64,000 nt of DNA from an uncultured archaeon. Its GTDB lineage: Archaea > Asgardarchaeota > Lokiarchaeia > Sigyniarchaeales > SOKP01. The DNA is taken from contig CAYLZE010000007.1 in the NCBI GenBank assembly GCA_964388035.1, positions 32,001 to 96,000 of the forward strand, read 5' to 3'. Positions 22,735-31,943 of the stretch are shown piece by piece; within the stretch, counting starts at the first letter, position 1, and each line of letters starts with the position of its first letter. The position numbers and the translations under genes were made by a program. A model generated the notes under the pieces. That model saw nothing but the letters and a program-made list of their open reading frames with translations, ran no database searches and was not told the origin of the DNA.

Positions 22735-22839
22735 TAGTCCCGCCCGGATTTGAACCGGGGTCTCGGGATTTCTCCACGTCCGAACGGCTAATAAGAACAT
22801 TTCAGAGTCCCAAATGCTTGGCCGCTACACCACGGGACT
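22735..22839 (-). tRNA. tRNA-Gln(CTG) with 32-nt canonical 37/38 intron (22770-22801)
   Basis: Acceptor AGTCCCG/CGGGACT (A1-U72), T-arm CCCGG TTCAAAT CCGGG, BHB helix CTCT/GGAG; 73 nt spliced. Confidence 0.95.
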
Positions 22840-28872: not shown

Positions 28873-29505
28873 ATGGACAAGGTGAAAATTGGAGCTATAG
28901 CTTCTGGATCGGGGTCTAATTTTGAAGCTGTTGTTAAGGCATGTGAAACGGGAATTTTAAAGAATAAGGCAACCGTGGAAGTGCTAATTTGTAATAAAGC
29001 AGGAGCGTATTGCATGGAGAGAGCTAAAAGCCATTTAATCCCATATTATTTAATAGAATCAAGCGAGCATGAGGGGACGAGAGAAGAATTTGATGCAAAA
29101 ATGGTTCACGTTTTAAAAAAACACGAGTGTACTTTGGCCATTTTAGCGGGATACATGAGATTTGTAAGCCAATATTTTATTGAGGCGTTTAAGGGTAACG
29201 TCATGAATATTCATCCCGCTCTATTACCTTCGTTTAAAGGCATGCATGCCCATAGGGATGTTCTAAATTATGGCGTGAAAGTTTCGGGATGCACTGTTCA
29301 TTTTATTGATGCAAAGGAGGATCACGGTCCGATTATCATACAAAAGTGCGTGCCCGTTTATGATACTGACACGGAAGTAACTTTAGGAGCAAGAGTGTTG
29401 GAATTTGAACATAAAATTTTTCCTAAGGCAATTGAACTTTTTTGCGATAATCGGCTTCATGTAGATGGAAGAATAGTACGAGTTGATGGAGAAGTTACTT
29501 TATAG
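28873..29505 (+). CDS. purN: Phosphoribosylglycinamide formyltransferase
   Basis: SGSGSNFEA, LAGYMR, NIHPALLPSFKG, GCTVHF, DHGPII. Confidence 0.95.
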   Translation: MDKVKIGAIASGSGSNFEAVVKACETGILKNKATVEVLICNKAGAYCMERAKSHLIPYYLIESSEHEGTREEFDAKMVHVLKKHECTLAILAGYMRFVSQYFIEAFKGNVMNIHPALLPSFKGMHAHRDVLNYGVKVSGCTVHFIDAKEDHGPIIIQKCVPVYDTDTEVTLGARVLEFEHKIFPKAIELFCDNRLHVDGRIVRVDGEVTL

Positions 29506-29554
29506 AGAACTTAATTTATCATCTTTTTTTTAATATATTGGGAAATGGCAATTT

Positions 29555-29618
29555 ATGATTGTTCTGACCCATCTGATATTGGAGTTTTCAATAAATGAAG
29601 AAGATCTTGAGTTCTGAC
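29555..29618 (+). ncRNA. Putative box C/D guide sRNA; D guide predicted to direct Cm34 of tRNA-Leu(CAA)
   Basis: C-like ATGATTG, 11-nt guide, D' CTGA (29573), 7-bp hairpin, C' ATGAAGA (29595), 12-nt guide AGATCTTGAGTT, D CTGA (29614), then T-tract. Confidence 0.65.
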
Positions 29619-29753
29619 TTTTTTATTCCCTCTCCTTCTATATTAGAGGGAATAAGTCATTTCCCTTTACATTTTCCTTAATTTATAACACCAAACTTTT
29701 AATCAAACTAAATATGAATTTTATTAGACTTTTTTAATTAGGATGGAAAAAAA

Positions 29754-31943
29754 ATGCCCCGTCGAAAAGAAATTTCGGAAATATTAAAATTAATGGAAAA
29801 ACCCGCTTCAACAAGAAATTTTGGACTCATAGGACATATTGATCATGGTAAAACCACCCTTTCTGACTCTCTCTTGAGTGAAGCAGGGTTGTTATCTCCG
29901 GAATTAGCAGGAGAAGCTCGAGTGCTGGACTATTTAGAAGAGGAACAAAAAAGAGGAATTACGATGAAGTCTACAAATATCTCCTTATATTATGAAAAAA
30001 CTGCGGAAAAGTCTGAGCCGTTCTTGATAAATTTAGTAGATACTCCGGGACATTTAGATTTTAGTGGAAAGGTCACTCGGGCATTACGACTAATCGACGG
30101 TGTAGTGGTCGTGGTAGATGCTGTAGAAGAAATCATCACGCAATCAGAAACGGTCATTAAACAAGCATTGGAGGAAAATGTAAAGCCGGTCCTTTATATA
30201 AATAAAGTAGATCGACTCATTCGAGAATTGAGTCTCACGGATGATCAAATAAAAGAAAAATATGTTCGGATCATTAAAGATTTTAATACTTTAATTGAAC
30301 GTTATGCTGATGAAGCATTTAAAGAAGAATGGAAGGTTTCTCCTGCAAAGGGCACGGTTGCCTTCGGCTCAGCCCTTCATAAATGGGGGTTTACCTTAAA
30401 AATCTTAGAAAAAAGCAGCTTGAAATTTAAAGATATACGAGAAAGATACAAGAAAGAAACCATATCAGAAAGGAAGTATGAAGATCTTCCCGTATATTTT
30501 CCCATTCATGAAGCCATTTTGGAGATGGTAGTCAATCACATGCCAAATCCTCAAGAAGCTCAGAAATATCGTATTAAAAAAATCTGGGATGGAGACATGA
30601 ATACAAAAGCGGCTAAAGCCATGGTATCCTGCGATCCAAAAGGACCTTTAATAATTTGCTTGAGCAAAGTACAAGCAGATAAACATGGTTTGATCGCTAC
30701 CGGAAGAATATTTTCCGGTTCCTGCACGGAACGAAAAGAAATCTTCTTAATGAGAGAAAATGAGTATGGGACTATTCGAAGGGTAGCAATTTTTATGGGA
30801 CAGCGAAGAGAACAAGTGAAGAGCATTCCTGTAGGGAACATCGTGGCGATTGAAGGATTAAAGATGCTTAAAAGTGGAGAAACTCTGGTGGAACCGACAA
30901 TTCTCAATGAAATGGTACCATTTGAGAATGTAAAATATGTATCAACGCCTGTTGTTACTGTTTCTATTGAACCGGAGTATTTAAGGGAATTGGATCAAAT
31001 GAAAAGAATCATAGAAGAATTATTAATAGAAGATCCTAACCTAAATTTTGAAATTAATGAGGAGAATGGAGAATTCCTATTGTCAGGAATGGGCCCGCTC
31101 CATTTAGAAGTTACAACAAATGAAATAGAAAAAAGAGGAGTTAAAGTCTCAACATCTCCCCCGCGTCCCGTATTTAAAGAATCTTGCAAGAAGAATTCTT
31201 CGCTCATTGAAATTCAATCTCAAAATGAACAAAATAAGTTAAAAATTTATATTGAACGATTGGACGAAATAACCGTTCAATTTTTTCACAATACTAATTA
31301 TCACTCTATAAAACCAAAAGAATATCTTAAATCTGTTTTGAAAACGAAAACATCTCTCAGCGAAGAAGAAGTGCAAAAATTCTGGCAATGCGATGAAGAT
31401 CAAAATCTATTATTATGTGATAATTATGAACAACTGGATGAGTATATACAAAAAAATATCCTTGAAATAGTTCAGAAAGTTCATTTAAATGGCCCTCTTG
31501 CAGGTGAAAAGCTCACTCAGGTAAAGATTGCCATCAAGGAATTAACTTTAAACGACATCAATGAAGATACTGCTTTTACGGAATTATCTGCCCTATTATA
31601 CGAGGGAATAAAACAAGGGTTGAAAGAAGGAGAAATGATTTTCATAGAACCGATATATAGAACTGTTATTCAGATCCCCCCAGCATATATAAAAAATACT
31701 CTTACTATTTTATCTAAAAATGGTGGTAAAATTAAAACCATTAATCAAGAAAAGGAGTATCAAGCCAGCATTGAAGTACTAATTCCCGTTAGAAAATCCC
31801 TTACCTTTGCTGAAGATATTCGTTCTTCCACTTCAGGTCGCGCATTTTGGATGAATGAGTTTTACGCCTTCATGGAAGTACCCCCTCACGAAGCACAAGA
31901 AATAATCAGTACTTTGCGATTTAGAAAAGGATTATCCTGGTAA
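29754..31943 (+). CDS. Elongation factor 2 paralog (aEF-2p-like), diphthamide motif absent
   Basis: GHIDHGKTT, RGITM, DTPGH, NKVD, GMGPLHLE, IRSSTSGRA; the domain IV HRG loop is replaced by NDINEDTAFTE. Confidence 0.85.
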   Translation: MPRRKEISEILKLMEKPASTRNFGLIGHIDHGKTTLSDSLLSEAGLLSPELAGEARVLDYLEEEQKRGITMKSTNISLYYEKTAEKSEPFLINLVDTPGHLDFSGKVTRALRLIDGVVVVVDAVEEIITQSETVIKQALEENVKPVLYINKVDRLIRELSLTDDQIKEKYVRIIKDFNTLIERYADEAFKEEWKVSPAKGTVAFGSALHKWGFTLKILEKSSLKFKDIRERYKKETISERKYEDLPVYFPIHEAILEMVVNHMPNPQEAQKYRIKKIWDGDMNTKAAKAMVSCDPKGPLIICLSKVQADKHGLIATGRIFSGSCTERKEIFLMRENEYGTIRRVAIFMGQRREQVKSIPVGNIVAIEGLKMLKSGETLVEPTILNEMVPFENVKYVSTPVVTVSIEPEYLRELDQMKRIIEELLIEDPNLNFEINEENGEFLLSGMGPLHLEVTTNEIEKRGVKVSTSPPRPVFKESCKKNSSLIEIQSQNEQNKLKIYIERLDEITVQFFHNTNYHSIKPKEYLKSVLKTKTSLSEEEVQKFWQCDEDQNLLLCDNYEQLDEYIQKNILEIVQKVHLNGPLAGEKLTQVKIAIKELTLNDINEDTAFTELSALLYEGIKQGLKEGEMIFIEPIYRTVIQIPPAYIKNTLTILSKNGGKIKTINQEKEYQASIEVLIPVRKSLTFAEDIRSSTSGRAFWMNEFYAFMEVPPHEAQEIISTLRFRKGLSW

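Follow-up and report, generated by a model that had tools for sequence, protein, structure and literature searches.

Cm34 of tRNA-Leu, the 2'-O-methylated wobble cytidine, is made by TrmL in bacteria and by Trm7/FTSJ1 in eukaryotes. For haloarchaea, the guide RNA sR-tMet is said (Joardar et al. in 2011) to act on the intron-containing elongator tRNA-Met precursor and to have an unusual C'/D' motif. The bacterial enzyme is listed in the source that gives sR-tMet as a C/D guide for Cm34 of tRNA-Met (PMC4033218). Moreover, C/D guides for C34 of tRNA-Leu(CAA) were predicted earlier in Pyrococcus, as given in PMC7994747 (2001 work) and PMC7668247 (a Lowe-lab list), and these guides have a bipartite C-D'-C'-D layout, spacers of ~12 nt and the fifth-base rule. 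Cm34 itself was not detected in tRNA-Leu(CAA) of P. furiosus (PMC7668247). In Haloferax and Pyrococcus the intron of pre-tRNA-Trp is itself a box C/D guide, for positions 34 and 39 (PMC7994747, PMC4033218). Finally, Cm34 of human elongator tRNA-Met is snoRNA-guided, according to Vitali and Kiss 2019 as cited in PMC7994747, and a snoRNA-tRNA network has been described (PMC10576143).

Our results suggest, with a probability of about 0.8, that the locus studied here encodes a box C/D guide RNA of ~65-90 nt, whose D arm would be directed to C34 of tRNA-Leu(CAA) and whose D' arm would be directed to the intron of pre-tRNA-Met. The locus lies in a window of 64,000 nucleotides (the whole stretch of DNA that was analysed; contig C7, 32001-96000) from a 5.47-Mb archaeal MAG with 33% G+C and 96.7% completeness, here called G000. 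It occupies the gap between a purN-like gene (28873-29505, + strand) and an EF-2-like gene (29754-31943, + strand), and all the features of the element given below are on the + strand. Inspection of the sequence reads the C-D'-C'-D element base for base at 29555-29617, in the order that the original prediction had laid out: box C, 11 nt, box D', hairpin, box C', guide and box D. Box C (29555-29561) was rightly called degenerate, since it reads AUGAUUG against the consensus RUGAUGA, from which it departs at position 6-7; in the family of G000 (f1) only the RUGA part is conserved. It is followed by the D' guide, an 11-nt spacer UUCUGACCCAU (29562-29572) with a core, UCUGACCC, that is invariant in the alignment and in 126 genomes, and by box D' (29573-29576), which is CUGA here and in most genomes and CCGA, CAGA, CGGA or AUGA in some. 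The D'-C' hairpin UAUUGGA-GUU-UUCAAUA (29577-29593; 7 bp, loop GUU) can serve as the canonical stem of the internal k-turn, and a single A (29594) separates it from box C' AUGAAGA (29595-29601; variants AUGAAGA, GUGAAGA, AUGUAGA, AUGACGA and AUGAUGA). The D guide is the 12-nt spacer AGAUCUUGAGUU (29602-29613), in which GAUCUUGAGU is invariant and G29609 faces the target nucleotide. Box D is CUGA (29614-29617), of which relatives mostly keep just the last two letters, GA (AUGA, UCGA, GUGA, UUGA or GCGA; UA in two genomes). The spacer lengths, 11 nt from C to D' and 12 nt from C' to D, are alike in the relatives.

Boxes C and D of G000 both contain the GA that forms the tandem G.A pairs. Its closing stem is short (~5 bp) and distant, the pairing left being only GGGAA/UUCCC, with the remnant 5' strand GGGAA at 29540-29544. 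Immediately upstream is a TATA-like A/T-rich stretch, T8-AATATATT (29524-29539), a possible promoter; since it adjoins the stem remnant, the G000 transcript may begin near box C. Box D is followed by a C and a run of six U (29618-29624, the U6 at 29619-29624), which is likely to be an archaeal terminator, and just past this run there is an extra hairpin of 9 bp, AUUCCCUCU/AGAGGGAAU (29625-29653). This hairpin, whose pairing lies within a chance match to a miRNA model, makes use of what remains of the terminal stem's 3' strand; it has no counterpart in the relatives compared and is specific to G000. Taken together, the decay of the stem to GGGAA/UUCCC, the abutting TATA-like stretch, the canonical box D and the U-run suggest that the local copy may be a shorter transcript. 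Canonical AUGAUGA/CUGA boxes are found in the genome G008 and in families f9 and f21.

A relaxed regular expression for this layout had a single match in the 5.47-Mb genome, namely this locus, and 0-1 matches per 2.8 Mb in first-order Markov shuffles. As this barely exceeds the shuffle rate, the motif by itself is weakly above chance and not compelling. Fold stability was no better than that of shuffles (z = -0.26), which is usual for C/D sRNAs. At gathering score, Rfam gave a single tRNA match in the window and none at the locus, where the best sub-threshold hit was the plant snoR31 (20.3 bits against 44, E = 0.79); on the opposite strand it was snoR23 (21.6 bits against 70). The marginal layout count, the unremarkable fold and the lack of an Rfam family would all suit an AT-rich intergenic spacer in which box-like motifs arose by chance and which holds no RNA gene. 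What makes that reading next to negligible is conservation. BLAST of the intergenic region against 40 relatives found homologues in at least 14 of them, in the same genus, in f1 and in a second family, f2, and the matches cover precisely the candidate, with the flanks excluded. We also searched 400 genomes of the phylum for the two-guide pattern TCTGACCC-N25-55-GATCTTGAGT, with the reversed pattern as control. The pair of guide cores, UCUGACCC ... GAUCUUGAGU, was present in 126 of the 400 genomes, almost always in single copy, and the reversed control in none (0/400). Boxes D' and C' are both conserved in these 126 genomes. By family, the pattern was found in 110/134 genomes of f1 and 7/14 of f2, and also in f8, f20 and part of f31; the single-contig genomes G171 and G038, from the sister family, are among the carriers. 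The pattern missed families f9 and f21 for the sole reason that the element is compact there; both guides are present in them too, together with canonical boxes (AUGAUGA and CUGA). In the alignment the guide cores stand out as two invariant blocks, and the GA of the boxes is kept amid variable sequence. Because it is conserved in this way, the locus is a real gene and not a chance motif, and it belongs to an old family of RNA genes that Asgard archaea (Promethearchaeota and sister lineages) carry in single copy.

Covariation is seen in both the terminal stem and the D'-C' hairpin. Misalignment of the hairpin and of the 3' strand kept RNAalifold, run on a MAFFT alignment, from recovering more than part of the terminal stem, and the homologues were therefore folded one by one. 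In the relatives the terminal stem has 10-16 bp, of the type GGGAAAUGAU.../...AUCAUUUCCC; at box C it extends to a 3-nt bulge that precedes the GA, and at box D it ends immediately past the GA, an arrangement with the geometry of a k-turn. Its sequence differs by lineage (GGGAAAUGAU/AUCAUUUCCC, GCGGGAAAUAAG/CUUAUUUCCCGC, UGAUCGGU/ACCGAUCA and AUACUCAAA/UUUGAGUAU; GCAGAC/GUCUGC in f20). The D'-C' hairpin, of 4-10 bp, was present in all the homologues folded, with sequences that are unrelated between lineages. G000 also encodes the proteins of such a particle: fibrillarin (PF01269, 257.6 bits) and Nop5 (PF01798, 199.5 bits), adjacent on contig C92, and L7Ae-family proteins (PF01248, 78.6 and 52.1 bits). 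The original prediction of an unannotated box C/D sRNA is thus supported by conservation in relatives and by covarying stems, at a locus that has no Rfam match at gathering score.

The predicted target of the D guide, the wobble C34 of tRNA-Leu(CAA), exists in G000 and, as had been anticipated, lies outside the window, on contig C31 (19047-19160). ARAGORN and RF00005 detect ~19-23 tRNAs in this intron-rich genome, none of them Leu(CAA), and a T-arm/acceptor scan added nothing decisive to the list. Exact and one-mismatch searches of G000 for both targets returned coding-region matches plus the locus itself, and they missed tRNA-Leu(CAA) because it has two mismatches to the 12-mer. ARAGORN labels this gene 'Ser(cga)' with a 36-nt intron, inside which the true anticodon arm, AUGGA-CUCAAGA-UCCAU, sits; the true intron, of ~29 nt, is located in the variable arm. 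The D guide, 5'-GAUCUUGAGUU-3', forms 10 Watson-Crick pairs plus G30.U with G30-C40 of the tRNA, C41 being mismatched, and C34 lies opposite G29609, the guide base five positions upstream of box D. The complementary 10-mer ACUCAAGAUC, which has 15 occurrences in 10.9 million genome positions, is kept in tRNA-Leu(CAA) of f1, f8 and f20, and the anticodon stems vary around it (AUGGA, CCGGA, CGGGA, CCAGA). The tRNA-Leu(CAA) gene of many f1 genomes is interrupted by an intron after position 38. Its precursor, ACUCAAGAUCU, would give the guide one pair more than the mature form does, a difference too small to tell which of the two is the substrate.

On these grounds it is quite probable that the RNA would guide Cm34 on tRNA-Leu(CAA), particle assembly and methylation being taken jointly. 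An RNA of about 65-90 nt would assemble with L7Ae, Nop5 and fibrillarin, the D guide would pair with the anticodon arm of tRNA-Leu(CAA), and the fifth-base rule would set fibrillarin on the 2'-OH of the wobble C to give Cm34. As the Pyrococcus guides for this C34 are already predicted, the D arm belongs to a known guide type: machinery, tRNA and nucleotide are the same (PMC7994747, PMC7668247). The Asgard RNA differs from those guides in its phylum, in its long covarying terminal stem, in an internal k-turn capped by a stem instead of a short loop, and in the relaxed form of boxes C and D. It differs too in having a conserved second guide, aimed at the intron of another tRNA.

The core of this second guide, UCUGACCC(A/C), demands (U/G)GGGUCAGA in a partner. 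The original prediction had named no partner for the D' arm and pointed to rRNA and tRNA; rRNA yielded none, but tRNA did, in relatives, as the intron of pre-tRNA-Met. When all copies of the 9-mer were listed in two relatives, one of the 18 genome-wide matches in G030 fell within a tRNA gene (~0.01 expected), in the intron of an elongator-type tRNA(CAU). Four other f2 genera have GGGUCAGA at a variable distance past the anticodon, in introns that are otherwise unalike, and this 8-mer is the sole element common to the unalike introns of f1, f2 and f20. The f1 precursor reads ...CCAGA-CUCAUAA-UCCUUCUGAAAAAAUGGGUCAGACCGGAUGAAU-UCUGG...; by its sequence we take this CAU precursor to resemble archaeal elongator tRNA-Met, tRNA-Ile2 being the alternative identity. 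The intron pattern CTCATA-N5-35-GGGTCAGA was found in 19/24 genomes of f1 and 8/11 of f2, with ~0-1 matches per genome for the controls. Phylum-wide it was found in 206/400 genomes (f9 3/3, f20 4/5, f21 6/6, f27 4/4), counts that are rough because GC-richer families carry a higher background. The same motif after the Trp anticodon occurred at background level only. The intron pattern had no match in G001, of the same genus as G000; in G000 itself, BLAST with f1/f2 queries, fuzzy patterns and motif context found no elongator tRNA-Met, and no copy of the D' target lay in a recognisable RNA.

Other RNAs were tried as D' targets and rejected. The rRNA scan, with G.U allowed, covered 23S in full for G001 and in part for G000 and G030, and 16S in full for G030, and its best result was one site with a central G.G mismatch, at a position that is not conserved. 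Note that the G000 assembly holds only the 3' half of the 23S gene (C23:53762-55777) and that no 16S rRNA gene was found in it, nor in four other f1 genomes searched. SRP RNA gave no match, and as regards the D-loop of class II tRNAs (a Gm18-like site), the Leu tRNA D-loops give 5 bp only.

The complementarity between the D' guide and the intron of pre-tRNA-Met is conserved and covarying in the relatives. The duplex has 8-10 bp, and its position 2 is A-U in f1 and f2, U-A in G010 (guide CCCUA, intron AAGGGUCAGA) and C-G in f9, f20 and f21 (guide CCCC, intron GGGGUCAGA); it is mismatched in G018, G178, G005 and genus g21. The RNA might instead be a single-guide sRNA, with a working D guide and an orphan D' spacer that matches the intron by chance or through a protein-binding motif common to both. 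The tRNA-directed sRNAs of Pyrobaculum are of this kind, usually with one functional guide and one that has no target, according to Lui 2018 as cited in PMC7994747. The predicted D' target base is moreover intronic, and since the D-loop intron of pre-tRNA-Leu(UAA) contains a closely similar sequence, GGGUCAAGACC, the motif might be a general intron feature. Orphan guides drift, however, and this D' guide is invariant over at least 7 families; its complement is likewise invariant within variable introns, with three compensatory states at one position, and the G030 count, one tRNA gene where ~0.01 was expected, argues against coincidence. An orphan D' spacer is thus rather improbable, and the intron of pre-tRNA-Met is likely to be the true partner of the D' guide.

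In this two-armed RNA, the D' guide would pair with an 8-10-nt (U/G)GGGUCAGA element in the pre-tRNA-Met intron, and several effects of the pairing can be proposed. The base facing the fifth position of the D' guide is the intron G just 5' of UCAGA. Being intronic, its methylation would have no obvious purpose, and real 2'-O-methylation of this base by the D' arm seems unlikely. As a tether, the D' arm might help the same particle to act on the anticodon loop of pre-tRNA-Met, which matches the D guide imperfectly (5 + 3 bp around two mismatches). Less likely still than intron methylation, the tether might time the splicing of pre-tRNA-Met.

As occurs with sR-tMet, the Asgard RNA is a box C/D RNA matched to an intron-containing elongator tRNA-Met precursor. 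sR-tMet pairs across the anticodon and the exon-intron junction and methylates the exonic C34, whereas the Asgard D' guide pairs 9-30 nt inside the intron, the base predicted to be methylated is intronic, and the 5 + 3 bp between the anticodon loop and the D guide are an imperfect match. The pre-tRNA-Trp system likewise ties tRNA introns to C/D-guided methylation; there the intron is the guide, whereas in the Asgard case the guide has a gene of its own and what the intron carries resembles a target. A possible parallel exists in eukaryotes, where C/D RNPs act on C34 of tRNA-Met.

A second precursor with a related element is pre-tRNA-Leu(UAA), which has a D-loop intron (loci L067-L091) and in G000 lies on contig C62 (17896-18028, - strand). 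The 3' part of this intron, GGGUCAAGAC(C)(GAUY), is invariant across ~20 genomes and the remainder varies. The element nearly repeats both the D' target and the motif of the tRNA-Met intron: in f1 the invariant GGGUCAAGAC(C) gives the D' guide 7 contiguous pairs and then an A.C mismatch, and in G030 the element GUGGGUCGGAAGG gives 11-12 pairs including G.U. Within the precursor, GACC of the intron can pair with the exon GGUC, and UCAAG with an upstream CUUGA. The anticodon arm CUGGA-CUUAAGA-UCCAG would itself pair with the D guide, with a G.U at U34. As a separate observation on tRNA structure, the T-loops of the elongator tRNA(CAU) in G035, G030 and G020 (loci L132, L157 and L151) are unusual, reading GUCAAGA, AUCAUUC and CUCGAAU instead of UUCRAAU; the T-arm of the G035 tRNA-Met, GGGGUCAAGACCC, resembles the intron element of tRNA-Leu(UAA).

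The intron motif is absent from tRNA-Leu(CAA), which is perfectly matched to the D guide. Since the imperfect partners of the D guide, Met and Leu(UAA), carry the motif and the perfect one lacks it, a tethering role of the D' arm is suggested. Docking sites for the D' guide would be GGGUCAGA in pre-tRNA-Met and GGGUCAAGACC or GGGUCGGAAGG in pre-tRNA-Leu(UAA). We tentatively propose that the D' arm could be an anchor or chaperone on the unspliced precursor, and prefer this over a purposeful methylation of the intron guanosine. Along the same line, and just as speculatively, a single guide RNA may act on several tRNAs by way of anchors in their introns, being tethered to unspliced Met and Leu(UAA). 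The tethered particle would then methylate the wobble base of Met and Leu(UAA) too, or would delay splicing until the tRNA is modified. A second ('extra') pairing region can reportedly strengthen a weak primary snoRNA-target duplex, as van Nues et al. are said to have described in 2011. If the guide does serve several tRNAs, some Asgard tRNA introns would persist because the modification machinery recognises elements in them.

No other prokaryotes are as closely related to eukaryotes as Asgard archaea. We found neither an Rfam family nor a paper on their guide-RNA repertoire, which is essentially undescribed, and our literature search found no described precedent for a phylum-wide guide arm aimed at an intron site well away from the exon. 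A Cm34 guide is thus an expected type of RNA in a lineage that has no catalogued ones, and the new part is the second, intron-directed arm. A phylum-wide, single-copy C/D RNA for which two partners are firmly predicted makes RNA-guided Cm34 of tRNA-Leu(CAA) testable in Asgard archaea, together with the docking of C/D particles on tRNA introns and the retention of some of these introns for the sites that they offer to the modification machinery. In its link to tRNA-Met the RNA also recalls human elongator tRNA-Met, whose Cm34 is snoRNA-guided. Asgard tRNA introns are very numerous (bioRxiv 10.64898/2026.10.13.758758).

The position of the element ahead of the EF-2-like gene bears on a further reading, in which it is a cis-regulatory leader of that gene whose two k-turn-like motifs bind L7Ae to control the mRNA, the guide sequences being kept for some other reason. 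Throughout f1 and, to some extent, in f2, purN, the element and the EF-2-like gene follow one another on one strand, and L7Ae is reported to bind mRNAs (PMC5539422). In f8 and f20, however, both guide cores are kept and no EF-2-like gene or purN was detected within ~1.5 kb (loci L162-L167), and this absence of the gene order argues against a leader role. In G000 the U6 run follows box D, 130 nt ahead of the EF-2-like start codon. A leader would moreover leave unexplained the exact complementarity to two tRNA precursors and the covariation, and we hold it to be very improbable compared with a guide RNA that has two conserved arms.

Two minor observations concern neighbouring genes. The EF-2-like gene that lies downstream of the sRNA is broken, in genus g4, after residue 32 by ~34 nt (L025:1912-1947, L028:1191-1226, L186:2732-2767 and L187:1856-1891); tblastn aligns residues 1-32 and 34 onward as separate pieces, and the break could be a small mRNA intron or a frameshift. 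Finally, the window contains an intron-containing tRNA at 22735-22839 (- strand; RF00005, 45.2 bits), which ARAGORN labels 'Pyl(cta)' and which, from its arm UGGGA-CUCUGAA..., is probably tRNA-Gln(CUG) with an intron.
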